From positions 286,321-350,320 of the forward strand of contig JACKGM010000002.1 in assembly GCA_020639315.1 (NCBI GenBank): 64,000 nt of DNA, written 5' to 3'. Below are positions 3,538 to 56,505 of the stretch, one piece after another. This DNA comes from Candidatus Nomurabacteria bacterium (GTDB lineage: Bacteria > Patescibacteriota > Saccharimonadia > JAGOAT01). Each line of letters opens with the position of its first letter. Position 1 is the first letter of the stretch. The position numbers and the translations under genes were made by a program. The notes below the pieces were generated by a model. It was not told the DNA's origin. It searched no databases and worked only from the letters and a program-made list of their open reading frames with translations.

Positions 3538-5526
3538 TCAGTACACCACCACCGCCTGATTCGACAAGTTGCCGTGAATATTCATATTGGCCATCAATTG
3601 AGCGGCGGTCCAGTTGAGTTGACCGCTGACTGGATCATTGATAATAAAGCTAGTTGGGTTATCAGGATTTCCCCTAAAACCAATCACAGTCCTAGCATGT
3701 TCTCCTATGTATGCTCCTACCGCTGAACCGTTGGCGTTCCAATCAATCCTCTGCCCACTATAGCTATAGCCCCAAATCACTACCGGGTTATTGTTGGCAA
3801 TCTGGTTTGCAATAAAGCTAGCCGATACTCCATAATGCACGCTACTATTCGCTCCCAATGCTTGTGCTGCTGCTGCGATTGGTGGCGCGTAAACCCCATA
3901 GCCAGTCTTAGCCGACTGACTTCCCATCACATCTCCGACAAACATTTGGTAAGGATCATCCCATTGGTTGCCATCTACTTGCCATTGTTTCGGGTTGTAG
4001 CCCACAAGACTCATTATTTGATTTTCGGTCGCACTAATCCCTCGATATGCCAATGCCATCTTCAGAGCTGCTGATTCACAAGATAGCGGCATAGTCTGAT
4101 AAAAAAATGGTACTCCTAGTATTGTCACCCTCTCCTCAGTCACAAAGCTCCCCGTAAATCCACTACTACTAGGCAAACCAAAGCCAAGATTGACCACTCC
4201 AGCTCCAACTACTACCCGGTATTCAGAGCCATACCCCAAGCTGGTGTTTGGGACTACCAAAACCGTACTATCGCTAGCCCACTCCAGATGATAATCAAAG
4301 CTCGGCGCGACCGAAATCCTACTCTCGGCTGAGGCCCGATCGACAGCCTGGGAAAAATCTACCCGAAATCTAGAATTGATCGGTAGCCCATATCCCCCAG
4401 GAGAAATCGATGCATAAACTTCACCAACTGATCTAACCCTAAAGCTCCTAGGACTTTCGGCTTCCAATCTACCTCCAGCCTCAGTCCTAGCCCCAGTCAT
4501 AACTTCAATATCATAGCTATTTCCAGGAGTAATACCAGACAAGTCTAGCTTGATATTCTGAGCATCTAGCCAGCTATATCCGCCCAGATTGGTTTGAATA
4601 GTCGTCTCTTGCTGATTCATTGGTTCTGAGAAACTCAAAACCAGATTGGAATTTGGATTAAGGCTCTCAGTCTGATTGATACTTAGCTTTGGCTCCCTGA
4701 CTGTTTGAAACTTGTACTGCTTGACTGGCTTAAGCTGATCTTTGTAGTTATCGAATACTTCTACACCGTACTCGGTAGTCTGTCGATATTCCTGCTTGGG
4801 AACAAATTTGACCTCAGTCTTATCTTGAGATAAGATCTTGTCAAACTGAATCTCTGGCTGAGTTTTGATCTGAAAATCACTCAAGTCATTGTTGGGTTCG
4901 GTTAGCTTCAGGGTCAATGTTTGGTCAAGCTTGACATTGCTTGCCTGATCAAAATCTACAGCTTCGATCTCAGGGGCATCCTGAGTCCGAAACCCAAGCT
5001 CTAGATCTTGCTTATCACCAAATTTCTTGGCAATACCATTCAGCTTGACCCTATAATCAGTCCCGGTCTTCAGTCGTCCATCTGGCACCAAGACGATCTG
5101 ATCGACAAGACCCAATGCACCAGTATGCATAAGCTCCAAATGATAATCGAAGCTTGGCTCAGTCTCAACTGCAAAATTTTGATCGAGTCCAAAATTGGAC
5201 TTGATTTTCAGAGCCTGACCAATCTCTAGCTTGGCCTCGACTGGACTTAGCTCAAGCTCCCCCTCCAGGTAATGCCAAGTATTAGAGCCAACTATTCCAG
5301 CTAGTAGTCCCAACTGTAATACCATCAGGCCAACCAAAGCCAAGCCCAATCTTCTGGATATCAGGCGCAGAAAATAACCGAAACCAAATCTCCAAAATAA
5401 GCTCGGACTTAATTGTTCTATTTCTGGCTTGGGGTCTTTTGGGTTCTTATGATTCTGATTATTTTGGTAATTTTTGTTATTTTTGTTATTTTTATTTTTG
5501 TTTTTGTTTTTATGTTTGTGGCTCAA
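3538..5526 (-). CDS. membrane-anchored protein with Ig-like beta-rich repeats and a C-terminal peptidase C39-like (YvpB-type) domain
   Basis: K/N-rich N-terminal tail and one TM helix (LALVGLMVLQLGLLAGIVG). The C-terminal ~190 aa (FFYQTMPLSCESAALKMALAYRG...GEHARTVIGF) resembles C39_2 cysteine-peptidase-like domains. Confidence 0.6.
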   Translation of the reverse strand: MSHKHKNKNKNKNNKNNKNYQNNQNHKNPKDPKPEIEQLSPSLFWRFGFGYFLRLISRRLGLALVGLMVLQLGLLAGIVGSNTWHYLEGELELSPVEAKLEIGQALKIKSNFGLDQNFAVETEPSFDYHLELMHTGALGLVDQIVLVPDGRLKTGTDYRVKLNGIAKKFGDKQDLELGFRTQDAPEIEAVDFDQASNVKLDQTLTLKLTEPNNDLSDFQIKTQPEIQFDKILSQDKTEVKFVPKQEYRQTTEYGVEVFDNYKDQLKPVKQYKFQTVREPKLSINQTESLNPNSNLVLSFSEPMNQQETTIQTNLGGYSWLDAQNIKLDLSGITPGNSYDIEVMTGARTEAGGRLEAESPRSFRVRSVGEVYASISPGGYGLPINSRFRVDFSQAVDRASAESRISVAPSFDYHLEWASDSTVLVVPNTSLGYGSEYRVVVGAGVVNLGFGLPSSSGFTGSFVTEERVTILGVPFFYQTMPLSCESAALKMALAYRGISATENQIMSLVGYNPKQWQVDGNQWDDPYQMFVGDVMGSQSAKTGYGVYAPPIAAAAQALGANSSVHYGVSASFIANQIANNNPVVIWGYSYSGQRIDWNANGSAVGAYIGEHARTVIGFRGNPDNPTSFIINDPVSGQLNWTAAQLMANMNIHGNLSNQAVVVY

Positions 5527-5537
5527 TCGTATATTCC

Positions 5538-8069
5538 TTATTTATTACTTATTATTTTTCCTCGATTTAGACTATGGTCAAAATGATGGTACAAATGAAT
5601 CATAGCCAGAGAACATCCATAAAGTAATACCGAAAAAGTGTAGATCCTAATACTGCCAAGATCATAATAATCTATCAGTTGCCAACCTGCCACTACTAGA
5701 AATAGCCCGGCTAGGTATTGACCAGCAAGCGTTCTTCTTCTCCTAGCCTCAAGCATGGTTAAGGCAAAAGCAGTAATCATAATGCCACCACAGACTAGTT
5801 CCCGATTTTCTACTGAAAGTAAAAGTTTGAAAATGATTCCAAAATATAGACCGATCAGCGCTCCTATCCTCAGCCACTGGGCATGAGCTTGCTCAAAAAA
5901 GTTTGCCATTAGATACCATCCGACCGCGGCAACTATTGGTAGCACTGCAGTCAGAAGCTCAATATCTACTAGATATAAGAATCGATATACTGCTATAAAA
6001 AATGTTAGACTAGAAGCAATTCTTGTATAGTGCAAGTGCTCCTTTTTGGTGATCAAAAGAAACAAAATAGACAATAGAACAAGTCCTGCTACACTCAACA
6101 TATCCCCAGACATTAGTAAGAATAAACTCGACAAGAAAATGCTGATCATCCCAGCTAAGTGTACGACTATCTGGCTAGATTGATAATAATCTTTAAGACT
6201 ATTATTTAATTGGTGACCTTTTTGGCTAATCTTCAATTTTTTGTCACTCAACATGATCAGTACTGCGGACAGTAACAGCCAAAGGATCCCCAACCCCGAC
6301 ATATCTAGCTGATTAAATTGCCAGCCTAGCTGCAGTGATATCAACACTAGTATTAGTAAGAACATCCCCAAATTTGCTGGATATAGTCTAGTGACTCTCT
6401 TGAGTGAAGCAAGAGTATATTCGCTAATCATTAAGCTTGCCCCAATGACTAGACTCAGTGAAGCTACTATCAACCAATCCTGTCTCCCCAGCCACCCAGA
6501 GACAATAAAGATAGTCAGATTGACAACACCAGGGACAATCAATAAGTACCTCATATCAACCCTACTCTTTTCTCCTCCAAAGGTTTGGGTTAGTCTAATC
6601 CAGATACCCACGACTGCTACAATCAAGCTCACCATATCTACAAACAACAGTCCCGACACTAGATTGTCAAAGTAGTACTCGGCTAAGAATAAACTGCTCA
6701 GTGTCAGTATTGCCTGACTCAATACAAATAGTCCGGTTTTGGTTGATAGCCTGCTTAGATTGACAGCATAAACTAGACAATAAAAGCTAGTGATCAGTAG
6801 ATAGCTAAAGGCATTTAGTCCTGAAGCAATGCCCATCAAGACAAGTATTGTAGTCATAGCTACAATAGTATTGCCCCAAATACGAATAATCATCTGCTCT
6901 TCCAGATAATGATGACGATTGGTCAGCTCAAGCAACCCAGCTAATGCTACTAAAGGCATCAGGGCTAGCCGATGATCTAGACCAAAATATACTGGCAAAC
7001 AAAATGCTAGCGAGTAGACCGAGCCTAGTACTAGATGAAAAACATATTGGTGCTTGTGCTGACTGTAGTTGTAGCCAAGCCAGGCTATACTCCATAAGCT
7101 TGCCAGACCTATGGTCAGGCTATAGCTATTAAGACCTAGTCCGATCACACTTAGCCAACCTGCAAGCAATACTGACAAAATAAATATTCCCTCCATCACC
7201 TTAAATGAACCTATCAGCAGAGGTTGATCTTCTTCAATCATCATCAGCAAGAAGTAAATCCCCACCAAGACTAAGCTACCTGCAATAAAGAAGATATTAC
7301 TATCATACAAAGCAACACCGACTAGGTTGGCAATCATTGCTATACTGACCGAGACTAAACTGAGCTTACGGAAATCAGCTGCCAAAACCTTTTCAAAAAA
7401 TGAGCTCGATAAGATGATCAGAATTACCCCGGCCATTGCCCCAGCCAGACTAAAGCTATTGATATCCCCACCTGCGGCGTAGACCAAGGACTCCAAAGCA
7501 ACAATTACCGTGATACCTAAGGTATTTGCCACTACTCTACTTCTGCGTAACTCGTAGGCAAAGAGTGTAATAATGCTAACCATCACAAATCCCACTAGCC
7601 AATACAGTTTTCCTAGGCCAAAATCGCTATAGAGCCTTAAGGTTAGAGGCAAAGCCAAGAGTGAAGTAGCCGACAAATCATACCAAGCAGACCAGCTTGG
7701 ATTGGGTTTGCTGACTAGGGCTAACCCTAAATAATACTTAGTAGCAATCAGGACGAAATTTAAACCCAGTAGTATTGTCAGCACCAGACCAAAATAACTC
7801 AAATCATAACCAAAGCTTAGGATAGCTAGTAAAACCATTGTGGCAGTATTGACCACCAGCAAAGTCTTAATCAATCTATCTAACAATTTATTCTTGGCAA
7901 CCGCTTGTTCATTTTGCTTCTTTAAATTCTTACGCTTAAGCTTAGGTTTGACACTCAGTCCGTCAATAAATTGTCCAGCTTCGCCAGTCTCAAGTGGACT
8001 AGCTGAGGCAATCAAGCTCAAAAAGATAAACAAACCCCCAGTCAAGCCCAATCCCAACCAGGCTAACAT
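5538..8069 (-). CDS. large polytopic integral membrane protein (843 aa, >20 hydrophobic segments), function unknown
   Basis: Long ORF almost entirely made of hydrophobic helices. AAGGAG Shine-Dalgarno 5 nt upstream of the ATG at 8069. Confidence 0.6.
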   Translation of the reverse strand: MLAWLGLGLTGGLFIFLSLIASASPLETGEAGQFIDGLSVKPKLKRKNLKKQNEQAVAKNKLLDRLIKTLLVVNTATMVLLAILSFGYDLSYFGLVLTILLGLNFVLIATKYYLGLALVSKPNPSWSAWYDLSATSLLALPLTLRLYSDFGLGKLYWLVGFVMVSIITLFAYELRRSRVVANTLGITVIVALESLVYAAGGDINSFSLAGAMAGVILIILSSSFFEKVLAADFRKLSLVSVSIAMIANLVGVALYDSNIFFIAGSLVLVGIYFLLMMIEEDQPLLIGSFKVMEGIFILSVLLAGWLSVIGLGLNSYSLTIGLASLWSIAWLGYNYSQHKHQYVFHLVLGSVYSLAFCLPVYFGLDHRLALMPLVALAGLLELTNRHHYLEEQMIIRIWGNTIVAMTTILVLMGIASGLNAFSYLLITSFYCLVYAVNLSRLSTKTGLFVLSQAILTLSSLFLAEYYFDNLVSGLLFVDMVSLIVAVVGIWIRLTQTFGGEKSRVDMRYLLIVPGVVNLTIFIVSGWLGRQDWLIVASLSLVIGASLMISEYTLASLKRVTRLYPANLGMFLLILVLISLQLGWQFNQLDMSGLGILWLLLSAVLIMLSDKKLKISQKGHQLNNSLKDYYQSSQIVVHLAGMISIFLSSLFLLMSGDMLSVAGLVLLSILFLLITKKEHLHYTRIASSLTFFIAVYRFLYLVDIELLTAVLPIVAAVGWYLMANFFEQAHAQWLRIGALIGLYFGIIFKLLLSVENRELVCGGIMITAFALTMLEARRRRTLAGQYLAGLFLVVAGWQLIDYYDLGSIRIYTFSVLLYGCSLAMIHLYHHFDHSLNRGKIISNK

Positions 8070-8101
8070 TTTACTCCTTGTCGCAATATCTTAGACTCAA
8101 A

Positions 8102-8150
8102 CAAAAAAGCACCCAGCTTCCAGCAATCTGCTTGGTAGTATTGGGTGCTT
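8102..8150 (-). terminator. intrinsic terminator/attenuator hairpin inside the 5' leader of the 5538-8069 gene
   Basis: On the minus strand, AAGCACCCA...TGGGTGCTT forms a 9-bp stem with an inner sub-hairpin, followed by TTTTTTGT. It sits ~22 nt upstream of the SD of the membrane-protein gene. Confidence 0.5.
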
Positions 8151-8250
8151 GTGATTTGTATTTTGCTCATTTTGTTTATTTATTTTTTAAGGCAAGGTTT
8201 TTTGCGTTGCCTTACCTGTCAACGACAAGAGACTAACCTCTTATGTCTAG

Positions 8251-8279
8251 ATTATAAAGAACTAAATATTTATACGCAA
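8251..8279 (-). promoter_or_regulatory. sigma70-like promoter for the leader and membrane-protein gene
   Basis: Minus strand reads TTGCGT (8279-8274), a 17-nt spacer, then TATAAT (8256-8251). Confidence 0.4.
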
Positions 8280-8309
8280 GGGTTTTGTTGATTTTTCTGG
8301 GGATAAATC

Positions 8310-8364
8310 AAAAAAATAGCGACTCCTGATCAAATATCCCGTATTTGATTAAGAACCGCTATTT
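8310..8364 (-). terminator. strong intrinsic terminator (minus strand)
   Basis: AAATAGCG...CGCTATTT outer stem (8 bp) plus a 10-bp inner stem (TGATCAAATA/TATTTGATTA). On the minus strand it is followed by TTTTTTTGATTTAT. Confidence 0.55.
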
Positions 8365-9425
8365 TACTAAAACTTTTTAAGACACAATTTCCCATCATAC
8401 TCTAACCACATCAAAGAGTATGATCGGGCACTATTGGCACCCTCCGTTTTAAGTGTTATAAAATATAACTAATCGTTGTGGTTTGGGGTGAAGTGCCCGA
8501 CCAAGTAATAACCTGGGTCGATTTTGGACTCAAGTTATCTGGTAAGCCTCCTCGACATCCGCCGATGAGGAACCTAGGTCTGCTCCAGAACAGCACTCTG
8601 GAGCACGCCTAGGTCCTCACCTATTACTTACTAACTAGTTTTTGACACGTTAGAAGATTTGGATTGGTTATAGCTTTGGGCTATAACTGGTGCGAGGTGT
8701 GATATCAGTCGATTTGTTTGAGTTCTTGATCAACTTAATCACAATCATTATTTTTCCCTGAAGTTGAATATTCCTTTGCCTAGCATTGAATACTACTTAG
8801 TCTACCGAGGGTAAACTGATAGCACTTGCCCCATTCTCAATCATTTGACTGATTAAGAAAAAATATTCTTTTCTCCTGGTGATAATTCTAGTTTTTAAGA
8901 GCACAACTGCTATTCTCAATCTTGCGATCAAAAATAAAATTGCTCATTTTTCGTAAGCTTGTTACAAAAAGACTAGAGAAATCTTACCTGAAGAGTTTTC
9001 AGAGAGTTCCCTTACTATCATCAGAGTAAGGGGATCTTAAGCTAGGCAAAGGGGGTATAATCCTAGCTTAAGATTCCCCTACTCTTGATTACTGTCCTTG
9101 GGCAGTAAATGATAAATACTGGCGAAGCATCCTACCCCGTTCTAGCCTTGTCAGCCAGGCTATAGCAAAAAGCGATGTTCACGCACGCTTCTATGTAAGC
9201 TAACTGCCTCCTGACACCGACTCAAGGTATATTTCTATACCTATCTAACCCTCCGGGTAGAATCAATGCTATGTATTATCTAGATCGGTAGTCAATCAGG
9301 AGTACTGATCTCAAAACCTATCTAGGTAAGGAAATTTGATTTGGCTTATGAATTGTAAAAGAACCTTATTAAACTTGATCTTGTCAAGCTCAACGTTTCG
9401 CTGATGATTTAAACTTTCATCATGG
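8310..9425 (-). ncRNA. candidate ~1.1-kb structured non-coding RNA (unclassified)
   Basis: No ORF >=60 aa in any frame. Minus-strand promoter-like TTGACA (9458-9453), 17-nt spacer, TACGAT (9435-9430). Terminator at 8310-8364. Several 9-25-bp hairpins lie at 8394-8424, 8424-8500, 8567-8618, 8666-8688 and 9022-9087. No known RNA family recognised. Confidence 0.25.
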
Positions 9426-9672
9426 CTCTATCGTAGCAAAGCATTAGCATAATGTCAACACTTTTGTAGTAATAAATGTTACATAATCTGTACCTATATC
9501 TTATCTATATAATATGATTATCACTTTTCAATAGTTATACCAGTATAATATCGTTGTTATAATATATACATTATTTGCCATCTAAACCTTCTGTACCCCT
9601 ATTGCTATCGTATCCCTCTCGCGCTATCATCCCCTTCCCCCTTAAGGTCACTCTTGTATTAGACTTGTTCCT

Positions 9673-9836
9673 TATAGCAAACTCAAAACAAAACCGGACA
9701 ATTTGAGCTGTACTATAGAGAACTAGAAAGGTAGTTATTCTTAAGAGCCATATCCATAGATATGGTGAGTAAGAAAACTAGCTTTATAGACTCTAGAGTT
9801 GGGTCAAAAGTCTGGTTTTGTTTTTAACTTGCTATA
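9673..9836. mobile_element. MITE-A copy (164 bp, long imperfect palindrome)
   Basis: Ends are TATAGCAAACTCAAAACAAAACC and GGTTTTGTTTTTAACTTGCTATA. The two ~80-bp arms are mutually complementary around a central CCATATC-CATA-GATATGG hairpin. Near-identical copies at 43360 and 58728. Confidence 0.8.
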
Positions 9837-9989
9837 ACTAAGGTTTTCGGTCCCAAACCACCTACTTTGAAATATAATAAATCTTTTCACTTCATCACCT
9901 TAATTTTGTTAGGGCTCTTTACGAAAAGGCTATTCTAGTCTCAAGCTAGACAATTTTATGCTCAAAAATTATTGGGGAACAAGTCTATT

Positions 9990-10150
9990 AACCCTGTTGC
10001 CATATAAACTTGCGAGGTCAAAGCTGATGATTTTTATTCCAGACTAGCAAAACATGACAAAGCATAACAGGAGTTACGCTGCGAAGTGTTTTGCTAGTCT
10101 GGGGCAAAAATGGCACTTTTGAAGCCGTGAGGTTATATGGCAACAGGGTT
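9990..10150. mobile_element. MITE-B copy (161 bp)
   Basis: 17-bp perfect TIRs AACCCTGTTGCCATATA / TATATGGCAACAGGGTT. Inner inverted repeat CCAGACTAGCAAAACA. Flanked by ATT/ATT 3-bp direct repeats (9987-9989, 10151-10153). Confidence 0.85.
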
Positions 10151-10200
10151 ATTGTCATCCTCCGAACTTCAGAGAACTTACAGGTATCCAGAGCATTGTC

Positions 10201-10236
10201 ATCCCCCGTAATCCTCGCAAGAGGATTACGGGGGAT
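10201..10236. terminator. very strong hairpin (16-bp stem, GCAA loop), possible terminator ~95 nt downstream of trpS
   Basis: ATCCCCCGTAATCCTC-GCAA-GAGGATTACGGGGGAT read directly. A T-rich tract follows only on the plus strand, so function is uncertain. Confidence 0.3.
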
Positions 10237-10329
10237 CTAGTATTTGTATTTTGAATAAAACCTAATTCTCCTATTTATCTTACTATACAAAATAGCAGGG
10301 TTTATAAAAATTTTATACCCTTGTCCATA

Positions 10330-11334
10330 CTAAATCAGCCCAATCAATTGCTTGACCTGATCCAGCTTCTGGTCTGCCAGTTGCTGACAATGCTCTTTTC
10401 CCTCAGCCACTACCCTACCTAGCATTGCCTGATCCTCTCTAAAACTTCGATATCTAGTTTGTAAATCAGCTAGCGTATCAGCCACCAATTCTGCTAAATC
10501 CTGCTTAAACTGACCGTATCCAAGTCCACTATAACGCTTCTGTATGGCTTCGATTGATAGATCACCATTAAACCCTCGATAAATATTGATTAGATTGCTG
10601 ATCGCAGGTTGGGTAGCTGGATGATAAACTACCTGATTATACTGATCGGTTACAGCTTTCTTAATTTTTTTATTAACTTGCTCGGGAGGATCTTCCAATA
10701 GTATATAGCTCAAATGATTATCGCTACTTTTACTCATCTTTTTGCTTGGATCTTGCAGATTCATAATCCTTGACCCCGTTTGAACTATCTGACCCTTGGG
10801 TATTACAAATACTTCTTTGTAAAGATTATTAAACCTACTAGCAATGTCCCTAGTCAGTTCAATATGCTGGATCTGGTCATCTCCCACTGGCACAATATCA
10901 GTATTGTATAGTAAAATATCAGCCGCCATCAAAACCGGATAGTTATAGAGTCCCACTAATAGCCCCTCTGGTTTCTGACCAGCAGTCTTATCCTTGAACT
11001 GAGTCATCCGGTTGAGCTCACCGATAGTCGTATAATTGTCCAATATCCACGCCAACTCGCTATGTGCAGGAACAGTAGATTGAACCATGATCTTAGCGTT
11101 ACCTTGATCTGGGTCAATCCCCAACGCCAGCAACCACGCTATCATATCAAAAGTGCGTTCCTGGAGCTGATCGGGGTCCTGTCTGACTGTAATCGCATGC
11201 AGGTTAACTATGCTAAATATCAGCTGACTATCTGGGCTATCTTCCTGCAACTCTACCCACTGTTTCATTGCCCCAATATAATTCCCAATCGTCGGCTTAC
11301 CGCTGGGCTGTATCCCCGAAAATATTCTCGTCAT
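10330..11334 (-). CDS. trpS: tryptophanyl-tRNA synthetase
   Basis: 334 aa. Class I signatures GIQPSGKPTIGNYIGA and KMSKS. Length and layout typical of bacterial TrpRS. Confidence 0.95.
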   Translation of the reverse strand: MTRIFSGIQPSGKPTIGNYIGAMKQWVELQEDSPDSQLIFSIVNLHAITVRQDPDQLQERTFDMIAWLLALGIDPDQGNAKIMVQSTVPAHSELAWILDNYTTIGELNRMTQFKDKTAGQKPEGLLVGLYNYPVLMAADILLYNTDIVPVGDDQIQHIELTRDIASRFNNLYKEVFVIPKGQIVQTGSRIMNLQDPSKKMSKSSDNHLSYILLEDPPEQVNKKIKKAVTDQYNQVVYHPATQPAISNLINIYRGFNGDLSIEAIQKRYSGLGYGQFKQDLAELVADTLADLQTRYRSFREDQAMLGRVVAEGKEHCQQLADQKLDQVKQLIGLI

Positions 11335-11419
11335 ATAGCTATAATTTTAACACACCCCTTACCCCAACCAAACCCCACATAACCCCCAGCTTCAACCTCT
11401 CGATTTCGACATCTTCAGT

Positions 11420-11482
11420 TTCGGGGTCAGACCCCGAACTCGACCTTGCTAACAGATATAAATCGTCGGGGTCTGACCCCGA
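11420..11482. repeat. REPIN-like doublet R1
   Basis: TCGGGGTCAGACCCCGA, spacer with AACAGATATAAA, then TCGGGGTCTGACCCCGA. Differs by 1 nt from R2. Confidence 0.85.
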
Positions 11483-11537
11483 CTTGTATTTTTTTTAGAC
11501 ACCATGGCCTACTCTTGTAACTACTCTTGTAATCTAC

Positions 11538-11798
11538 TTAACCGTATAGCTGCGAGTGTGTTCCTATCAAAGCAAATATGATTATTTCCTCTGACTCTCT
11601 ATAGTATAGAGCTCGCAAGTCTCCTGATATATTAATACTATAATAACTAGCAAATCTTCCCTTTAGTGGATGTAGTCTCAAAATTGGATTTACTGGATCA
11701 ATCAAAAACAGTCTTAATCGTTGATCAAATTGAACTTGTTGTTTGGCTGGTAATTTTTGATATTGTTGCTTAAACTTTTTGTCATATTTAATAATCAT
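11538..11798 (-). CDS. type II toxin, RelE/YafQ-family mRNA interferase
   Basis: 86 aa. Contains ...LHPLKGRFASYYSINISGDLRALYY...LIGTHSQLY, typical of YafQ/RelE toxins. Overlaps the upstream antitoxin gene by 4 nt. Confidence 0.75.
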   Translation of the reverse strand: MIIKYDKKFKQQYQKLPAKQQVQFDQRLRLFLIDPVNPILRLHPLKGRFASYYSINISGDLRALYYRESEEIIIFALIGTHSQLYG

Positions 11799-12064
11799 GA
11801 CTTCAGGTCTTGTAGGAAATCCTCAACATTATCAAATGCCGAGCTGATTTGACCGTCTTCCCTATCTCTCTCCACTTGAGCAATCTTCTCCTCGAGCCCT
11901 ATGCTCATCGGTTCTGGAACATATATCTCAATATGCCTAGTCACAACCACTTGTTTTAGATAGCTATTAATTAAGCTACTGAGTGTAATCCCAGCGTCCT
12001 TAGCGAGCTGTTGAGCAGCCCTCTTGGTATCATCATCTGTTTTGATAGTAATTACTTGGCTCAT
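11795..12064 (-). CDS. type II antitoxin, RelB/DinJ-like ribbon-helix-helix
   Basis: The likely start MSQVITIKTDDDTKRAAQQLAKDAGITLSSLINSYLKQ (ATG at 12064) is an RHH-type N-terminus. The ORF-track start at 12121 runs into repeat-adjacent sequence. Confidence 0.7.
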   Translation of the reverse strand: MSQVITIKTDDDTKRAAQQLAKDAGITLSSLINSYLKQVVVTRHIEIYVPEPMSIGLEEKIAQVERDREDGQISSAFDNVEDFLQDLKS

Positions 12065-12138
12065 AATACTAAATATATACGTAGTATTACATATTGTCAA
12101 CCGAGCCCTGCCATAAATCAAAATCTAGAATCATAGAA

Positions 12139-12200
12139 TCGGGGTCTGACCCCGAACTCGACCTTGCTAACAGATATAAATCGTCGGGGTCTGACCCCGA
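12139..12200. repeat. REPIN-like doublet R2
   Basis: Same architecture and near-identical sequence to R1 and R3. Lies ~130 nt upstream of the RAYT-like gene. Confidence 0.85.
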
Positions 12201-12328
12201 CTTGTATAGATTGAAGACTATTATACTTGCAAAATTACTGGGTTTGAGCAACAATGTAACTAACTTTAGTGTTAGACTCAACGATTACTGACTATCGTTG
12301 TCTCTGTAAAATATAATCAATACTAACT

Positions 12329-12979
12329 ATGCCAAATCCAAATACTATTAGACGGTACTATCCTAATACCTTTTACCACTTATACAACCGTGGTAATCAT
12401 AAGTTGCCCATATTCTTTAACCATCAAGAATATTTGAAGTTCTTGGCTATACTGAAGTTTTTATTAACATCAGACAACAAGACGGCTGATTCTCTAAAAA
12501 TATTTGCTAAACCTAGGAGAAAAGAGCAAAATTTTAGCAAGAAAATTGCGTTAGTTAGTTTCGTCTTAATGCCAAACCACTTCCATATGATAATATATGC
12601 AAAAGACCCGAAGGACATAGAGAAATTCATGGGTAGGTTAAGCATAAAATACACTCAAATAGTTAACTCTAATCACAACCTGGTAGGTCGACTCTTCCAG
12701 GGTGTATATAAGGCTAGACCAATATTATCAGAAATTGACCTGACTAACACTTCTGCTTATATACACCTAAACCCAAACGAACTCACTCCTGATAATTCAG
12801 ATTATTATCTTTCCTACCCCTATTCGAGTCTGTCCAAAAACCATACTACATTAGGGGTTATCAATTTTGATTTACTCACCGATAAGGCGGATATATCACT
12901 AATTCAATATCATCAGTATTTATTGAATAAATCAAAAAATTTCGTTGAAATGCAAATGATTAAAAAACATGGTATCTAA
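12329..12979 (+). CDS. REP-associated tyrosine transposase (RAYT)-like HUH/Y1 protein (IS200-like fold)
   Basis: 216 aa. N-terminal FYHLYNRGNHKLPIF, HUH motif LMPNHFHMII and tyrosine motif SAYIHLNP. No tnpB partner. Flanked by REPIN-like doublets on both sides. Confidence 0.8.
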   Translation: MPNPNTIRRYYPNTFYHLYNRGNHKLPIFFNHQEYLKFLAILKFLLTSDNKTADSLKIFAKPRRKEQNFSKKIALVSFVLMPNHFHMIIYAKDPKDIEKFMGRLSIKYTQIVNSNHNLVGRLFQGVYKARPILSEIDLTNTSAYIHLNPNELTPDNSDYYLSYPYSSLSKNHTTLGVINFDLLTDKADISLIQYHQYLLNKSKNFVEMQMIKKHGI

Positions 12980-13026: not shown

Positions 13027-13110
13027 CCTGACTTCGTGACTTCGGGGTCTGACCCCGAACTCGACCTTGCTAACAGATATAAATCGTCGGGGTCTGACCC
13101 CGAAGTCAGG
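13027..13110. repeat. REPIN-like doublet R3 (extended outer stem)
   Basis: Core as in R1/R2, with an additional complementary CCTGACTTCG (13027-13036) / CGAAGTCAGG (13101-13110). Sits between convergent gene ends. Confidence 0.85.
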
Positions 13111-13112
13111 AT

Positions 13113-13421
13113 TTAGTAGTAGATTTTTATCCGACCTGTGATCACTACGATTAGTACTATTAGACCAAGGAATCTACGCCACAAGTTGACCCCGTAGCGA
13201 ATCTCCAAATAAGCCCAATAAATCAAGCTAATGTCTCTAATTAGCCCCAAATAATAACTGATAGAAAAGCGACTAAGTATCAGGCTCGCTAGTCCAAAAT
13301 AAAACCAAATCTTCAAGGGCAGATTAGCAGGTTGGGCGACTACAATCCTACCCTGACTATCCCTAAAGCATTTATCTACCAGGAAATTTTTACATTTACT
13401 AATCAACTGATTTGATTTCAT
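13113..13421 (-). CDS. small membrane protein (hypothetical)
   Basis: Hydrophobic segments present. The likely start is MKSNQL (13421), because the track start at 13478 overlaps the upstream giant gene by 41 nt. Confidence 0.4.
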   Translation of the reverse strand: MKSNQLISKCKNFLVDKCFRDSQGRIVVAQPANLPLKIWFYFGLASLILSRFSISYYLGLIRDISLIYWAYLEIRYGVNLWRRFLGLIVLIVVITGRIKIYY

Positions 13422-13437: not shown

Positions 13438-16400
13438 TTAATTCTTAGAATAGTCCTCTTGTCTACTCTTAAGACCAATCAACCAAACTAGGCTAGCGAT
13501 TGCTACTGCAACCAAGATAATAGTGAGGATACCAGCTCCGGTCTTGGGTAGTTGTTTCACCTTATCGATTAGACTATCTTTTGCTTCTAGATAATCCGGC
13601 ACTCCATTACCATCTTTGTCAACAAAACTCTTAGAATCAGTAGGGTTAGTACCGTTTTGCTCTTCGACATAGTCGGGTACTCCGTCACCATCGGTATCGA
13701 GATAATCATCTGGGTCATTGGGATCGGTGCCCTGCTGATTTTCAACGTAGTCAGGCACTCCGTCACCGTCAGTATCAAGGAAGTCGTCCGGATCATTGGG
13801 ATCAGTCCCCTGCTCTTGTTCGACTACATCAGGCACTCCGTCACCATCGGTATCAATCCCTTCCTGATAATCAGGGATACCATTGTTATTTTCGTCTACA
13901 AAATCATCAGGGTCGTCAGGGTTAGTACCGTTTTGCTCTTCGACATAGTCGGGCACTCCATCGCCGTCAGTATCAAGGAAGTCAGTAGGATCGCTAGGAT
14001 CAGTACCCTGCTCTTCTTCAACATAGTCAGGCACCAAGTCACCATCAGTATCTGGATAGCTGTCTGGGTCACTAGGGTCTGTACCCTCCTGAATCTCTAC
14101 ATAATCAGGTACTCCGTCACCGTCGGTATCAAGGAAGTCATCAGGGTCACTCGGGTCTGTGCCCTCCGATACTTCGACATAGTCGGGTACTTCATCACCA
14201 TCATTATCAGGGTAACTACTAGAGTCATAGGGGTTTGTACCTGCAACTACTTCGATGCTGTTTGGCACACCATCTTGATCGCTATCTAAAAAATCATTAG
14301 GGTCATTAGGGTTAGTACCCTCTTGAATTTCAACATAATCAGGTACACCATCACCGTCGGTATCAAGAAAATCATCAGGATCATTGGGGTCTGTACCCTC
14401 TTGAATCTCGATTGAATCCGGTACCCCATCCCCATCAGTATCTGGCCCATCACCAGGGTCATTTGGATTATATGGATCTGTACCATCGACTAATTCTTGG
14501 TAATCCGAGATACCATCATTATCACTATCTAGGAAGTCGTTAGAGTCGCTAGGATCAGTACCCTCAGTCTCTTCTACATAATCAGGCACCCCGTCACCGT
14601 CAGTATCCAAGAAGTCATCGGGATCATTGGGATCTGTGCCCTGTTGTAGTTCAACATAATCAGGAACCCCATCACCATCGCTGTCAACAAAACTATCCGG
14701 GTTGTTTGGATCTGTTCCGTCAATGATTTCAACATAATCTGGTACCCCGTCGCCGTCAGAATCAGGATAGCTTATAGAATCATAGGGATCAGTTCCTTCC
14801 TGCTCTTCGATATAGTTAGGCACCCCGTCACCGTCAGTATCCAAGAAGTCATCGGGATCATTGGGATCTGTGCCCTGTTGTAGTTCAACATAATCCGGAA
14901 CTCCATCACCATCAGTATCAGTGGCTTCGATTACTTGAAAATCTACATAGTCATAATTGTTTCTGAAACCTACATCAATCTGTTCAATCGTATCGAGATA
15001 GCCATAGTTGGTCAAAAATTGACCTGCGTTAACACCTATATCAGCTACCAATATAAGCTCAGCTTGAGCCGAAGTAACCAAGCTTGGAATTGACCAGGTT
15101 AAACTACCCTGATCAAAACTTCCATCAGTGACTTGTATGTCTGCTACTGTTAGCCCTGTAGGCAAACTGTCCTTGATCACAATACTGGTAGCATCATTGT
15201 CCCCGATGTTATTAACAACAATCTTATATACCACCTGACCACCTTCCTGAAGATTGCTCCTGATATCTTGATCATCGATTACCTTAGTCACTTCCAAGTC
15301 AGTTACTACAGGTACGACTCCTGTGGTAAAAGCGATCAAATCATTATCATTGAGATAATTATTATCATCTTGATCAAAACCTAAGAGACTAGCAGAATTA
15401 ATCACCTCTTGACCATTAGCTGCGTCAATATTGACAGTAATATCAAGTGTAGCTGTCGCAGCTGAAGCCAAACTTGGAATTTGCCAGATACCAGTAGCTG
15501 AGTCATAACTGCCGACCGAAGGGTTGGCACTGACAAAGCTTACCCCGCTAGGCAAGTCATCATTGATCATTAGCCCTGTAGCACCAATACTCCCTAGATT
15601 GTCTACTATAATCTGATAAGTCAGACTATCATTTTGATTGAATCCGCTATTGTCAAAGTCGATTGTTTTGAAGACTGCGATATCAGTCAGCATTGGCTCA
15701 ACACCGACCGTGAAGCTTGCACCATCTGAATCATTACTATAGTCGATATCGATTTGATCTAAGCTATCTAAGTAAGCTAGATTATCAAGCTGACTATTGA
15801 GGCTAGCATTGATGGTAGCTGTAATCACCAAACTCTCTTGACCATTGGCTGCCAAGCTAGCAAACTGCCACTGACCAGTCACCGGATCATAGCTACCTGA
15901 GCTAGTGGTGGCCGAAACAAAGCTCAGACCAGCTGGCAATTGGTCAATAATCGTTAGGTTGGTAGCCGATTGAGTAGTCTGATTGGTTGCAACTACTTGA
16001 TAAGTAATAATCTGACTAGTGGCCAGCTCTGCTCCACTATTCGGATAATCAATATTCTTGATCACTGCAACATCAGTCAGGACGGGAGTCGTCCCAACGG
16101 TGAACTGAATAGTGTCATTGTCGTTAGCAGAGTTGGGGTCGACTAGATTGGTGGCTACGGCTGTAATCTCACCATAGTTGTCGACTGCTTGGCCTAGGCT
16201 AGCATTGATAGTAGCTGTAATCCTGAGCTGAGTATTACTGTAAGCTGCCAGGCTAGAAACGCTCCAGTCCCCAGTGGCCTGATTGTAGCTACCAGTATCT
16301 GGAGTAGCCGAGACGAAGCTTAGTCCAGCTGGCAAAAGGTCACTAACCACGATATTGTTAGCTGTCTGATCTCCATAATTTTCTAGATTGACGATATAGA

Positions 16401-19400
16401 CTACCATGCCTCCGGTCGAGAAATCACTAGTACTACTAGCAAAATCGATATTGGTATATACCCCGAGGTCAGTTACCACCGGAGCTACCCCGACTACAAA
16501 CTCAATACTGTCGCTATTGTTGACTGCATTGGTATCAACTTGATCGAATCCATTGATCTGAGCAAGGTTATTGATTGTAGTACCACTAGCAGCACCAATG
16601 GTAGTGGTTACTAAGATTGTCTTAGTCTGATTGACAGCTAGCGTACCTAGATTCCAAGTCGTACCATTGTAGCTACCATCCCCTTGTGTACCGACTAGGG
16701 TTAGTCCGGCTGGCAGAGGATCGTTGACTGATACCCCTGTAGCATTCAAAGGACCTTGATTGGTCACTTCTAGCTTGTAAACCAATTGGTTACCAGAGTT
16801 GTAGCCAGAATTGGCAGTATCAAAAGTCTTATTGATCGAGAGATCGGTGACTTCACTGGCATTGTTTAATACTGTGTAGACACTGTCATAATTGTTACTG
16901 AGGTTGGTATCAGTTTGGTGCATACTCAGAATGTCAGAGATATTTACTACTACGCCACTACTGAGATCAACCCTGACTAATAGATTGAGTGTTGCGGTAC
17001 TACCTGTACCCAAAGAACCCAAATCCCAGACTCCTGTTGCTTGATCATAGCTACCATAGCCATTGGTATTAGCAGACACAAAGCTTGTGCCGTTTGGAAC
17101 TGCGTCTCGGACTATTACCATACTAGCAGGGTTAGAGCCTTGATTGGTCACATCTATTACATATTGAATTTGATCATTTTGACTGTATGGTCCAGGTGTC
17201 GATGCACTAATCGACTTATTGAGTACCAAATCAGTCGCAAGAATCGTGACTGGAGTATTAACCAGATCAACATTATCGCTATAGGTATTACCGAGCTCAC
17301 TTTCTGTCTCGACTAGGACCTGATTAGCCACTTCTGGAGCAGCTGCTTCATCCACTAGTACCTTGAATTCGAGTGGCTCAAGTGCCTGACCCTCTAGGAC
17401 TGGATAATTCTGATAGGTACATTCGATATCTTGACCGGTCACTAGACAGCTCCAGTTGGTCGAGCTAACCCAGCTATCAAAGCTCAGACCAGGATCGAGG
17501 CTATCAGTCACTACAATTGGTGAGGTAGCCAAGACCTGACCGACTGGACTACCTGGGGAGCTAGTATTATTACTGACTTGAATCCTATAAGTACCCAAAC
17601 TATTTTCGACGAAGCTACCGACTGCAGTCTTTTCTACTGCTAGATCAGGCCTAATCAGATCGACAGTGAATGATACGGTATCTGTATTGTTAGCTTGATT
17701 GGTGTCAAGCTGATCAGCTGACTGAATAGTCGCAGTGTTGTCTATCTGTCCATCCTGAGCTACAGTGGCCTGAATAGTCAAGGTAGCGCTAGAATTAGCA
17801 GCAATACTAGGTATAGTCCAAGTACTGCCACTGTAGCTACCACTAGAAGCAGTAACATTAGTAACATTTAACTCCGAGGGAACAACATCTTCTACTACAA
17901 TATTGCTAGCATTGAAGTCGGTCGGGTTTGTCACGGTTATTTGGTATTCGATGGTACTACCGAATTCGATTGGGTTGTCAGCTGATGAGACTTGCTTATC
18001 TAGGCTAAGATCAAGATCGACCATCATCCCGAAATCAACTGTCTGATTGTAGTTGCTGACCCAGCCACCGGTACTGGCGGTCTCAGAACCGTAGGCTAGA
18101 TTAACCCTACCGGATACTACACCGTAAACTCCATTGGTACCATCATCATTATTGTCAGTATTGTCTAGATAAGTAACTGGTTCATATGGTCCAGTCAAAG
18201 CATTGGTTCCACTAGTACTTGTATAGCCTTCTAGTGGCTGACCAGCAGCGAACTGACTAGTCGGAATCAAGACAAAGTAATTGCCATTGGCCAAATAGTC
18301 TATTTTGTAGTTCCCTGACGGATCAGCTGTAGCAGTGTCGATAAATATATCTGTATTTGGATCAAAAGTACTATTACCATCATCTAACCACAACTCAACC
18401 CCTACTCCACCAATACCATTATCTCCAGCATCAAATAGACCATTGTAATTATTGTCTGCGAAGACTGCACTACCGATTGAATTGTAACGAACTTGGGCGG
18501 AAACGGAGTCGGAATTGTTGCCAGTATTGGCTGCTATTTCATCTACACTTGATACACTAGCCGTGTTGTTGAGAGTCGGTGCCGCACTGCGATTGATAGT
18601 GTAGCCAAAACTGATCGTCGGTAAGCTAGCACCAGGAGCTAGATTGGATCCACCAGTGTAAATACAGGTCAAATTGTTAACCCCGACCCCAGGTACGACA
18701 TTACAGCTCCAACCTGCTGGGCTAATCGGTAGATTGAGAGTAAGTGAATCTGGAATCGCATCGGTCACAGTGATCGCTGCTCCATTGTCAAAAAAGCCAG
18801 TCGAGCTAGCCGCATTGCTCACTACAATACTGTAGGTACCGATTTGACCAACTTGAGGGTTGGCACTAGCGGTCTTGTCAATCGTCAAATCACAAGGTAC
18901 TGAATAGTTGACAGTCTGGACCTCACTGCCGTCACTGGCAGTGGGGGTTAGGACGAAACCAGCTACAGTTGGGTTATTAGTTGTTTCAGCATCGATACTT
19001 ATAAAATTAAGTAAAGTTAGAGCTCCTGTAGTGTTATCTATCGAGAACAACAGTAATCTTCTATCTAAACCTAGAGGGGCTTGTACATTAGTTGCTAGTA
19101 GTCTTGTCCCATCAGGTGAAATAACCAAGGAATGAAGGTAACCACCTCCGTAGTAAACTGCACTAGTTCGAACAGGAGCAGTAGGATCCGTCATGTCGTA
19201 TAGGTAAATTCTTACCCCATCATAGTCATTGCCAGCGATAGAGTCGTCTGTCTTAAATGCTGCATATGCAAAATTTCCTACCTTACTATAGGCAACATTA
19301 CCGTACTTCCTTACGGTAGTTTCTGAGTAAACTAAGGTATGAGGTAATGTTGCGTTAACCGAATAGTGCTCAAATGTATTATCGTTGATATATGGGCCAT

Positions 19401-24547: not shown

Positions 24548-24612
24548 TGCGGGGTCTGACCCCGCACTTGACCCTTTTAACAGATATAAACTTGCGGGGT
24601 CTGACCCCGCAA
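24548..24612. repeat. REPIN-like doublet R4
   Basis: TTGCGGGGTCTGACCCCGCA...AACAGATATAAA...TTGCGGGGTCTGACCCCGCAA. The outer stem bases changed in a compensatory way relative to the other copies. Confidence 0.85.
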
Positions 24613-24625
24613 TGGGTTTTTTGGA

Positions 24626-25651
24626 TCAATCTTCGCTAGAGTTTTGAGGCAATAAAGCTCGAGAATTACCGATCTGGATAGCTAGCTTATCATGATCTTT
24701 GATTGATGACTCAAAAGCTCGCTGAGCGTTACCAAGGTGCTTCCCTGTCAACTGTAAATTGTCCCCGAGCTTACCTGACTGCGTAGCAATTGCCGAAATC
24801 GAAGCAATAATCTGCTTGGCCTTCTCTTCTATCTTCTCTCCCTCCATAGCTAGTAGTACCGTTTGCAAAAAATAATAAAATGAGTTTGGTGACACCATAA
24901 ATACTCTCTGGTCCACCCCATATTGCTGCAAATCAGTATCACTCAAAATATGATAATAAATGTTTTCACTGGGAATATACATCATGGCAAAATCAACAGT
25001 CCCCTCATCAGGTAGGATATACTTTTTGGATATTGAACGGATATGCACTTTGACGTCTTTAGCAAAATCTTTCAAGCTCTGCCCCGAATCTCCAGAATCA
25101 GCCTTCATAGCCTTAGTAAAGTTTTCCAAAGGAAATTTGCTATCAATCGGGATTAATCCATTCTTGGTCCTGATCACTGCATCGACTTTGACCCCCGAAC
25201 GAAATCCGTATTGCAAACTAAAGCTCCTCAAGGGCAACATTTGCGTCAAAAGGTCTTTCATCACCTGCTCACCAATATTACCTCGCAGCTTTGGTGACCT
25301 CAAGAAGTCTTGCAATTCCTTCATATTGCGACCAATCTCACTAAACTTGCCGACTTCTCTACTCAGATCCGAGTAAGCTTTAGCAGCATTGTTAAGCCGA
25401 TCTTGCATTTGACGCTGATTATCTGCTATCGAACGGTTGATATTGTCCAAATCAGCCTTCAATAGATTGACGGTACTATCATTTCTAATCTGTTCTCTTA
25501 ATACCTCGATTGACTTGGATTGAAAAATCATCTGCCTCAACACCAACCCAACTATCCCGATCAAAACCACAATCAAGGCCAATACCAAAATCTCCATCTG
25601 CTTATTATAAATCATAAGCATTATTCCCCCAAATATTAACCCTGTTGCCAT
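24626..25651 (-). CDS. rmuC: DNA recombination protein RmuC
   Basis: N-terminal TM, coiled coil and C-terminal RmuC-type domain (AMMYIPSENIYY, VSPNSFYYFL). The first 14 nt of the track ORF lie inside the MITE-B TIR, so the true start is probably an internal Met (25621 to 25597). Confidence 0.8.
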   Translation of the reverse strand: MATGLIFGGIMLMIYNKQMEILVLALIVVLIGIVGLVLRQMIFQSKSIEVLREQIRNDSTVNLLKADLDNINRSIADNQRQMQDRLNNAAKAYSDLSREVGKFSEIGRNMKELQDFLRSPKLRGNIGEQVMKDLLTQMLPLRSFSLQYGFRSGVKVDAVIRTKNGLIPIDSKFPLENFTKAMKADSGDSGQSLKDFAKDVKVHIRSISKKYILPDEGTVDFAMMYIPSENIYYHILSDTDLQQYGVDQRVFMVSPNSFYYFLQTVLLAMEGEKIEEKAKQIIASISAIATQSGKLGDNLQLTGKHLGNAQRAFESSIKDHDKLAIQIGNSRALLPQNSSED

Positions 25652-25798
25652 ATAACCTCACGGCTTCAAAACTGCCATTTTTGCCCCAGACTAGCAAAAC
25701 ACTTCGCAGCGTAACTCCTGTTGTGCTTTGTCGTGTTTTGCTAGTCTGGAATAAAAATCATCAGCTTTGACCTCGCAAGTTTATATGGCAACAGGGTT
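25638..25798. mobile_element. MITE-B copy (161 bp, reverse orientation) between divergent rmuC and tyrS
   Basis: Same TIRs as the other copies. ATT/ATT TSD at 25635-25637 and 25799-25801. Confidence 0.85.
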
Positions 25799-25838
25799 AT
25801 TGAAAGAAACCTCATCAGATGATAAGCTTATATCAGAT

Positions 25839-27845: not shown

Positions 27846-27900
27846 ACTATAGTCTATTTTACCCCAAACATTCCAGCCTGAAAATAGCCCTATAGCCGCC

Positions 27901-27952
27901 TATAGCAAGCTCAAAACAAAACCGGACAATTTGAGCTGTACTATAGAGAACT
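27901..27952. mobile_element. truncated MITE-A (left ~50 bp only)
   Basis: TATAGCAAGCTCAAAACAAAACCGGACAATTTGAGCTGTACTATAGAGAACT is identical to the left arm of full copies, after which similarity is lost. Confidence 0.7.
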
Positions 27953-28063
27953 ATAGCCCCCGTAAAACAAAACCTGTTTGTTTTGGGTGATTAGATTATC
28001 GATCTAGAATTGTCGGATGCAAAAATCCTATTTATATCATGCTATAATTGCTATAATAAAATC

Positions 28064-29591: not shown

Positions 29592-29655
29592 TTCGGGGTC
29601 TGACCCCGAACCCGACCTATATAACAGATATAAATGGTCGGGGTCTGACCCCGAA
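29592..29655. repeat. REPIN-like doublet R5
   Basis: TTCGGGGTCTGACCCCGAA...AACAGATATAAA...TCGGGGTCTGACCCCGAAG. Confidence 0.85.
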
Positions 29656-29737
29656 GTAGGGGTTTTGGGGTGTTGCCAAAAGAAGAGAAAAAGATGATTT
29701 TAGCTTCAAATTACGCTATAATAGTCTAGGCATCTAT

Positions 29738-43589: not shown

Positions 43590-43620
43590 AAGAAGGTGGC
43601 TACCATCAAGCCCGACAACC

Positions 43621-56489: not shown

Positions 56490-56505
56490 AATGATGATTA
56501 TACCA

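Follow-up and report, generated by a model that had tools for sequence, protein, structure and literature searches.

What occupies a gap of 2260 bp without open reading frames (ORFs) in otherwise gene-dense DNA? This question is raised by a stretch of 64,000 nucleotides (referred to here as the window) of contig JACKGM010000002.1 from a member of the Saccharimonadia, in which positions 8070–10329 are bordered by the minus-strand gene of an 843-aa membrane protein on one side and by trpS on the other. In an initial annotation, this gap was described as unusually large and free of ORFs of 60 aa or more, and a large unclassified minus-strand non-coding RNA (ncRNA) bounded by a promoter and a terminator was suggested, with a decayed region as the fallback. 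The ORF list agrees with the first description, and the gap is indeed the largest one in the window, the next measuring 810 bp and the median spacer 76.5 bp (ORFs of at least 100 aa considered). The suggestion of an ncRNA is supported by conservation of the region, by pairing preserved on one strand and by the lack of an Rfam match, and it is concluded with high confidence that positions 9423–8305 (minus strand) represent a real structured ncRNA.

Evidence for a structured RNA in the gap

In a set of 5.8 billion proteins, only one homologue of the 843-aa protein was found; it shows 65% identity and is encoded in genome GCA_017983775.1 (loci L005 and L006), the sole close relative detected. Upstream of the orthologous gene in L005, 2 kb are again devoid of ORFs and of called genes, and this stretch aligns with window positions 9575–8141 at approximately 80% identity. 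The similarity is organized in conserved blocks separated by two variable segments (Table 1). Among coding sequences, trpS is 78% identical to L005 at the nucleotide level, the 843-aa gene reaches 64%, and two other neighbours show 70% and 59%; the conserved blocks are under more constraint than these neighbouring protein genes.

Single-base indels recur inside the conserved blocks of the alignment between the window and L005, which excludes a reading frame. Just one ORF is preceded by a Shine-Dalgarno (SD) sequence (GGAGG ahead of a TTG start; 25 codons), and in L005 its fifth codon is a stop. The longest stop-free stretch within 8296–9432 comprises 50 aa and grows merely to 61 aa when UGA is read as a sense codon. 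Moreover, a Pfam search with the ten longest stop-free segments of the region gave no match, the window showed no remnant of the three genes by which trpS and the RNA are separated in L005, and gene callers applied to two other assemblies called no gene in the region. Based on block conservation, indels, the broken ORF and the lack of a Pfam match, a gene remnant or a UGA frame, the region is considered neither coding nor decayed. A degraded protein gene was recovered neither by Pfam nor by comparison with the genes of L005, and the fallback explanation is rejected, since the blocks are more conserved than the neighbouring genes and pairs are preserved on one strand.

The element is delimited by the two signals that had been noticed initially, namely a promoter-like site (TTGACA, 17 nt, TACGAT; 9458–9430) and an intrinsic terminator (8310–8364), and both hold up. 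The promoter is the top-scoring promoter-like site in the gap, and its hexamers are conserved in L005, where the orthologous site (TTGACA-17-TAAGAT) tops the gap as well; the overall number of promoter-like sites in the region shows no enrichment (6 found vs. 6.7 expected). Similarity to the relative extends upstream of the promoter, as deduced from a blastn alignment of 9575–9315 with L005 3396–3653 (79% identity). The terminator hairpin is conserved with three double compensatory pairs relative to L005, accompanied by several G-U pairs that would read A-C on the plus strand and are therefore valid on the minus strand only, and its ortholog in L005 was also called as a terminator by the scan. 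The additional length of the L005 RNA sits in the variable segments.

Table 1. Features in and around the gap between trpS and the 843-aa gene; identities refer to the relative locus L005, with the compared positions in brackets.
Feature	Position in window	Strand	Description	Identity to L005
843-aa membrane-protein gene	5538–8069	minus	approximately 25 hydrophobic segments; ATG at 8069	
Conserved leader of the 843-aa gene	8070–8244	minus	approximately 175 nt, three hairpins	
Second conserved promoter, TTGCGT-17-TATAAT	8251–8279	minus	serves the 843-aa gene; in a nearly invariant block of approximately 60 nt	
Intrinsic terminator	8305–8365	minus	24-bp hairpin 8313–8365, then U7 (8316–8310)	78% (8365–8308)
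Predicted ncRNA transcript	approximately 9423 to 8305	minus	approximately 1120 nt; approximately 1320 nt in L005	
3' conserved domain	8392–8868	minus	multi-helix; hairpin of approximately 26 bp at 8567–8618, hairpin 8420–8503	88% (8868–8392), invariant runs up to 48 nt
Variable segment 2	8869–9005	minus	approximately 145 extra nt in L005	50% (9005–8869), plus 145 gap columns
Signature hairpin H-A	9014–9089	minus	25-bp stem 9022–9087, apical loop AUUAUACCCCCUUUG	96% (9087–9006)
Variable segment 1	9088–9310	minus	many indels	49% (9310–9088)
5' conserved block	9311–9423	minus	two small hairpins	87.5% (9432–9311)
Sigma-70-type promoter, TTGACA-17 nt-TACGAT	9430–9458	minus	extended -10 TG; predicted transcription start near 9423	
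AT-rich stretch upstream of the promoter	9459–9575	minus	possible UP element or regulator sites	approximately 79%
MITE-A copy	9673–9842		96–98% copies at 43354–43523 and 58728–58890	
MITE-B copy	9987–10158		96–100% copies at 25637–25799 and 50110–50282	
Perfect 16-bp palindrome	10201–10236		downstream of trpS	
trpS	10330–11334	minus		

Folding of positions 8300–9440 (minus strand) yielded a minimum free energy (MFE) of -375 kcal/mol, compared to -283 ± 10 kcal/mol for dinucleotide shuffles (z = -9.2). Most of the helices listed in the initial annotation (8394–8424, 8424–8432/8492–8500, 8567–8618, 8666–8688, 9022–9087 and the terminator) were recovered: helices were confirmed at 8391–8427, 8421–8432/8492–8503, 8572–8614 and 9023–9085 along with the terminator hairpin at 8313–8365, and the hairpin 8666–8688 is present in the consensus fold. 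The exception is the helix 8506–8513/8622–8629, of which approximately 7 bp can be read from the sequence and which is absent from the consensus fold.

Preservation of pairs was evaluated on the MFE structure of the window sequence alone, by comparing the substitutions found in L005 with 2000 simulations placing the same substitutions at random. Within the 3' domain, 15 changed pairs were kept and 8 broken on the minus strand, compared to 11.6 and 21.5 in the simulations (P < 0.0005), which corresponds to 15 of 23 changed pairs kept vs. 35% expected. On the plus strand, 7 were kept and 17 broken (7/24; P = 0.8), as in the simulations. All four changed pairs of the terminator were kept. Selection for pairing acts on the minus (sense) strand of the RNA, and both conservation and covariation were thus found in the relative. 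Furthermore, GCUAGGCAAAGG (8784–8773) in the 3' domain is perfectly complementary to the H-A loop together with the 7 nt that begin the 3' arm (9052–9041, CCUUUGCCUAGC); the complementarity is retained at 11 of 12 positions in L005, and its chance expectation was estimated at approximately 5e-4. This 12-nt pairing may form between two molecules, or within one as an alternative fold.

The initial annotation had also considered that the hairpins could be copies of scattered palindromic repeats. A second copy of 8070–9672 or of its hairpins was not detected in the 64-kb window, where just two 15-nt chance words were found, and none of the hairpins recurs. Overall, the element shows the features of a large stand-alone structured ncRNA: it exceeds 400 nt, is non-coding, carries predicted signals of its own, from which its transcription is deduced, and displays compensatory change.

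Probable relationship to a short trpS-adjacent RNA family

Identity of TrpS homologues to the window TrpS falls from 79% and 76% for the two closest sequences to at most 57%. Seven loci around TrpS proteins of 52–57% identity were sampled from other Saccharibacteria. Six of them (L014/15, L016/17, L018, L019, L020/21 and L022) share the gene order RmuC, trpS, a gene-free gap of 546 to 1013 nt or more, a small membrane protein, pheS and pheT; the far end is incomplete in two cases, since the L018 contig stops before pheS and L020 contains an inserted methyltransferase gene. Each of the six gaps harbours a promoter (TTGACA or TTGACT, 17 nt, then TATACT, TATAAT, TAAGAT or TAAGTT), an RNA of approximately 0.5 kb and a G+C-rich terminator. 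The two short members that were folded, L014 and L016, reach MFE z values of approximately -8, and RNAalifold predicted 78 pairs over five short-RNA species, 39 of them with compensatory change. Two hairpins characterize the family. One, of approximately 30 bp, is topped by a CCCCCUU loop; the base of its stem is conserved (ACAGUAGGG/CCCUACUGU), and the middle covaries freely. The other, located at the 3' end, follows the pattern CGGGCC...UAACAYUU...GGCCCGUAACC and has 87.5% of its alignment cells paired vs. 31–46% when the alignment is slid. Judged from these sequences, the trpS-adjacent RNA family appears to be new, and no publication describing it was found.

The 1.1-kb RNA was connected to this family by covariance models (CMs). 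The model R1, trained on five short RNAs only with the window sequence excluded, matches the H-A region of the window (9014–9089, minus strand) at E 4.7e-6 (30.9 bits); the ortholog in L005 obtains 32.7 bits. These are the top matches in 150 kb, where the miniature inverted-repeat transposable elements (MITEs) and other long hairpins obtained no score, and the same model recovers the sixth species, L022, with 46.5 bits. In a joint alignment of eight H-A sequences, 85% of cells are paired vs. 39–54% after sliding, double changes are seen in 18 of 26 pairs (equalled by 0 of 500 shuffles), and CCCCCUU is invariant in all eight. The stem base of H-A shares AGUAGGGG and CCCUUACU with the short family at matching structural positions. 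Like the short RNAs, the 1.1-kb RNA has its own TTGACA-17-TAnnnT promoter and terminator and lies downstream of trpS on the same strand. In the 17.6-kb L005 locus, the RNA is still located between trpS and pheST and is the sole element bearing H-A there, as expected for a positional ortholog flanked on either side by inserted gene blocks; pheST lies beyond the left edge of the window, and the corresponding position of the window RNA is predicted from L005. The 1.1-kb RNA is probably an expanded positional ortholog, about twice as large, of the short trpS-adjacent RNA.

Searches for known RNA families covered the whole window and six relatives (L005, L014, L016, L018, L019 and L022). With Rfam 15 at gathering thresholds, three tRNAs were detected in the window, all of them outside the gap, and at E ≤ 10 the gap showed sub-threshold, hairpin-type chance matches to miRNA models only. 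No match was obtained at E ≤ 10 for three relatives, at E ≤ 5 for a fourth and at gathering score for L016 and L005. The models covered include RNase P, signal recognition particle (SRP), 6S, OLE, GOLLD, ROOL, raiA, HEARO, T-box and group I/II introns. Moreover, scans for transfer-messenger RNA (tmRNA) with ARAGORN reported 0 genes in window positions 7000–11500, L005, L014 and L016, and inspection by eye revealed no 5'/3' closing helix, P4-type motifs, tag ORF, GNRA-capped SRP helix, GUGYG or domain V. Readings as T-box, RNase P, SRP, 6S, tmRNA or group I/II intron were rejected on these grounds. The earlier impression that the element resembles no tmRNA, RNase P, SRP, 6S, rRNA or riboswitch consensus is thus confirmed by Rfam and, for tmRNA, by ARAGORN. 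A report of an ncRNA of such kind in Saccharibacteria or in the candidate phyla radiation (CPR) was not found in the literature.

The protein gene following the short RNA was also inspected. A conserved protein of approximately 125–150 aa, probably with four transmembrane (TM) segments and with the motifs GPxGVTFWF and SLRSLSWRD...VE.Y, is encoded directly upstream of pheS (L015 12001–12384, L016 11811–12194, L019 3374–3745, L020 12699–13169, L022 7878–8252, L005 13358–13804), and in most Saccharibacteria examined it directly follows the RNA. It matched no Pfam or NCBIfam family. Its gene overlaps the pheS start in L016, L019, L020 and L022, which suggests translational coupling of the two genes. 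The seventh locus, L023, differs in its trpS synteny: an H-A hairpin was not found within ±6 kb, and a 700-nt gap upstream of trpS (5340–5600, minus strand) resembles tRNA genes by eye.

Alternative explanations and surrounding elements

Several results weigh against the proposed relationship or limit the support for the RNA. An nhmmer search of the window with the whole short-family sequence profile gave no match, the model R2 (3' hairpin of the short family) found nothing in the window and L005, and the model R3 (3' end of the window RNA) found nothing in the short RNAs; plausible by eye, the homology of the 3' hairpins thus finds no support from CMs, whichever side supplies the model. With R1, the reverse strands of true members obtain 30–49 bits, so that the score partly reflects hairpin shape, and the link to the short family consists of one hairpin and a position. 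Because of these negative results and of the length (1.1–1.3 kb vs. approximately 0.5 kb), the RNA is regarded as an expanded, diverged relative and not as a typical member. Furthermore, a pairwise covariation test of the whole RNA on the single-sequence MFE structure gave a weak signal only, which is ascribed to the unalignable variable segments, and with only two long-form sequences covariation is thin inside the domains specific to the long form. Scans for exact words (conserved 18–20-mers) in GTDB species genomes, Joint Genome Institute (JGI) metagenomes and IMG/VR returned chance matches only. As a possible pseudoknot partner of the CCCCCUU loop, (A)AGGGGG occurs approximately 65 nt downstream in L014 and L018, but no such partner is general.

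Further long-form sequences were sought by several routes. The 76%-identical relative from the TrpS list is represented by a 2-kb contig without the RNA, no other homologue of the PHP neighbour gene was found, so that it led to no third long-form locus, and P0006, considered as a third source, proved to be an unrelated Firmicute. The words CCAAACCACAACGATTAG (GTDB species genomes) and GGAGGGTGCCAATAGTGCC (JGI metagenomes) yielded chance matches only, which were rejected by nhmmer. Three IMG/VR scans and a blastn search against phage genomes showed no similarity to the RNA region.

Downstream of the terminator, the 843-aa gene possesses a promoter and a leader of its own (Table 1). The -35 element of this promoter was too weak for listing by the promoter scan. 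For the leader, RNAalifold predicted 30 pairs, 7 with compensatory change; its last hairpin (8149–8109) is followed by U6 (8108–8103) approximately 35 nt before the ATG. Rfam gave no match for 8070–8244, and from its sequence the leader looks like a transcription attenuator or a riboswitch-like cis-regulator of the 843-aa gene. As expected of a cis-acting leader, it lies in the 5' untranslated region (UTR) without an intervening terminator and promoter, which does not apply to the 1.1-kb RNA. The separate leader and promoter explain why conservation reaches 8141.

With these elements in place, the alternatives can be weighed. The RNA could be real and structured but a lineage-restricted orphan, its hairpin resembling H-A of the short family by convergence or chance. 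The hairpin is the sole detectably shared part, the family profile, R2 and R3 are all negative, long hairpins obtain approximately 30 bits with R1 even when reversed, and the long form is known from two genomes only. An orphan would nevertheless have to match R1 better than anything else in 150 kb, including the unscored MITEs and other long hairpins of the window, carry AGUAGGGG, CCCUUACU and the invariant CCCCCUU loop in the same structural places, occupy the same strand and trpS–pheST position in L005 with no second H-A RNA in the locus, and have a similar promoter and terminator layout; this explanation is unlikely, although it deserves appreciable weight. A very long cis-acting 5' leader of the 843-aa operon, or a processed 3' UTR of trpS, would account for the common strand of both neighbours, for conservation running beyond the terminator to 8141, for the attenuator-like hairpin ahead of the ATG and for the apparent lack, in the relatives, of a terminator separating trpS from the RNA promoter. 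However, the RNA is closed by the covarying intrinsic terminator (8365–8305), which is followed by the separate conserved TATAAT promoter (8279–8251), and the promoter and attenuator-like leader of the 843-aa gene argue that the 1.1-kb RNA is not its leader. The H-A RNA precedes a different gene in other Saccharibacteria, the 843-aa gene having one homologue, and the distance to trpS differs by approximately 1.5 kb and three genes between the window and L005. Such a cis-acting role is considered quite improbable.

Divergence from a known housekeeping RNA (RNase P RNA, tmRNA, SRP RNA or 6S RNA), or an ORF-less intron, is a very improbable explanation. In its favour, a complete Saccharibacteria genome is annotated with no more than 2 ncRNAs by PGAP (PMC8830319), so that one standard RNA may be missed, the short form keeps its synteny and seems universal, and tRNA genes of Patescibacteria hide introns (PMC13011429); against this stand the Rfam searches of the window (E ≤ 10) and its relatives, the ARAGORN result and the hallmark motifs not seen by eye. 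It is scarcely credible that the region serves as mRNA for small proteins or as a dual-function RNA: several conserved SD-like GGAGG motifs and ORFs of 35–50 aa exist, but the best candidate is the one truncated in L005, one-base indels occur throughout the conserved blocks, invariant runs of 48–62 nt show no third-position wobble and Pfam gave no match. The probability of non-functional DNA, i.e. a decayed gene or palindromic and mobile-element debris, is close to negligible. Two MITEs adjoin the RNA, the genome is repeat-rich and half of the length (9310–9088 and 9005–8869) is essentially unconserved, yet the blocks are more conserved than trpS, promoter and terminator are retained, pairs are preserved on one strand only, remnants of Pfam domains or of the genes inserted in L005 are absent, and there is no other hairpin copy within 64 kb.

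The right third of the gap consists of two multi-copy MITEs and one palindrome, as the initial annotation had stated, and further copies of both MITEs with 96–100% identity are present in the window (Table 1). The 64 kb contain at least three families of MITE-like elements, with several copies of 96–100% identity per family; additional coordinates are 27899–27953, listed with MITE-A, and 31501–31687/50070–50421 for the third family. Proteins identical to the window TrpS and the 843-aa ORF are encoded by the Candidatus Saccharibacteria metagenome-assembled genome (MAG) GCA_020428505.1, and in MAG assemblies of the same organism, contigs end inside the gap, breaking exactly at MITE-like repeats. 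Moreover, doublets of the palindrome TCGGGGTCTGACCCCGA, which resemble repetitive extragenic palindromic (REP) sequences, were found at least eight times in the window (11421–11500, 12139–12218, 13042–13121, 24549–24628, 29593–29672 and 53422–53501; inverted at 43526–43595 and 56504–56584). One cluster flanks an IS200/Y1-transposase-like ORF (12329–12979, Pfam Y1_Tnp), which suggests a system of the type formed by REP sequences and REP-associated tyrosine transposases (RAYT), unusual for a reduced CPR genome.

Among the neighbouring genes, that of a 662-aa protein (3538–5526, minus strand; Pfam Peptidase_C39_2 and Big_5) follows the 843-aa gene. Pfam and NCBIfam provided no function for the 843-aa gene or for the downstream 173- and 125-aa genes. 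The 843-aa/662-aa operon, together with DUF5663 and Cob_adeno_trans genes, appears to have been inserted between the RNA and pheST in the window lineage. A RelB antitoxin/YafQ toxin pair (11538–12121, minus strand) is located directly upstream of trpS, and a 2265-aa ORF (13438–20235) with CLIPPER and SdrD_B-type surface-protein domains according to the MAG annotation contains approximately ten tandem 78-nt repeats at 13604–14968.

Possible function and comparison with known systems

On balance, the locus is best explained, with moderate confidence, as a stand-alone gene of a structured ncRNA of approximately 1.1 kb, which is an expanded ortholog of the short family and may act in trans. The RNA would operate as a stable folded molecule, in a ribonucleoprotein (RNP), as a scaffold or in an RNA-only assembly. 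The invariant base and the C-rich loop of H-A could be where a protein or a G-rich RNA docks. Two sites of the RNA tolerate large insertions, as seen between the window and L005, and the variable segments may represent tolerated expansion helices. The lineage-specific 3' domain might add contacts, including the 12-nt pairing to the hairpin apex. By analogy with OLE and OapA only, the small 4-TM protein is a candidate partner; it is not adjacent to the RNA in the window lineage. A role of the loop as anti-SD mimic or in SD targeting was rejected, since the SD sequences of the window are of the GGAG type and would mismatch CCCCCUU. As a more tentative and rather doubtful extension, a vertically inherited, probably essential RNA of approximately 0.5 kb next to trpS could be present throughout Saccharibacteria, acting as an RNP or RNA-only assembly, possibly with the small membrane protein in the manner of OLE and OapA, and could have doubled in the window lineage through a new conserved 3' domain of 480 nt.

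To our knowledge, large bacterial RNAs of undefined function are few, namely OLE, GOLLD, ROOL and raiA. If the interpretation is correct, a new class would extend this list to an episymbiotic, genome-reduced CPR lineage, and a new large functional RNA class would have been kept in bacteria whose genomes rank among the smallest known. Three of the four listed RNAs were recently shown to form RNA-only assemblies (PMC12286853). Saccharibacteria possess genomes of approximately 0.7–1 Mb with approximately 94% coding density (PMC10768705); 0.5–1.3 kb of non-coding DNA constrained above an aminoacyl-tRNA synthetase gene in such compact genomes implies an important function. Members of this lineage are now culturable and genetically manipulable (PMC10187176), so that the question is directly testable. 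Furthermore, the locus illustrates RNA expansion by conserved cores combined with fast-evolving insertion segments. It is covered neither by an Rfam model nor by gene calls, and long, seemingly empty stretches of CPR genomes should hence not be written off as decay or noise of the assembly.

The 1.1-kb RNA is of the same general kind as OLE, GOLLD and ROOL yet unrelated to these, and no described family matches it. OLE RNA (Rfam RF01071) occurs in anaerobic Firmicutes and has the membrane partner OapA. With OLE, the window RNA shares the character of a large, stand-alone, multi-helix bacterial RNA of undefined biochemical function amid housekeeping genes, and in the short-form relatives the gene of a small 4-TM protein after the RNA recalls the ole–oapA arrangement. 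It differs in lacking a match to the Rfam model, in its phylum (Saccharibacteria vs. anaerobic Firmicutes) and, in the window lineage, in its distance of approximately 8 kb from the small membrane-protein gene. GOLLD and ROOL are giant 'ornate' RNAs forming homo-oligomeric cages (Kretsch et al. 2025, PMC12286853). The size of 0.5–1.3 kb, conserved cores with variable helices and independent transcription units are features in common with these RNAs, and the 12-nt complementarity between apex and 3' domain could in principle act between molecules. In contrast to GOLLD and ROOL, it has no Rfam match, neither adjoins tRNAs nor lies within phage or prophage DNA, and produced no phage or IMG/VR matches.

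Similarity to housekeeping RNAs is given by the clade-wide, syntenic and single-copy occurrence of the short form with a strong promoter and terminator, but Rfam models and ARAGORN were negative and hallmark motifs are absent. The unpaired C-run (CCCCCUU) on a stable stem resembles small RNAs of the RsaE/RoxS type and the CsrB/RsmZ sponges and could pair with G-rich or SD-like RNA or bind a protein. However, the window RNA is 5–10 times larger than these, its loop mispairs with GGAG-type SD sequences and GGA motifs are apparently not enriched according to a rough hand count in one short-form member. Finally, long near-perfect hairpins are also typical of the MITE and REP elements, some of which are adjacent in the same gap, whereas the hairpins of the RNA are single-copy within the 64 kb, occupy the orthologous position in another species and covary.

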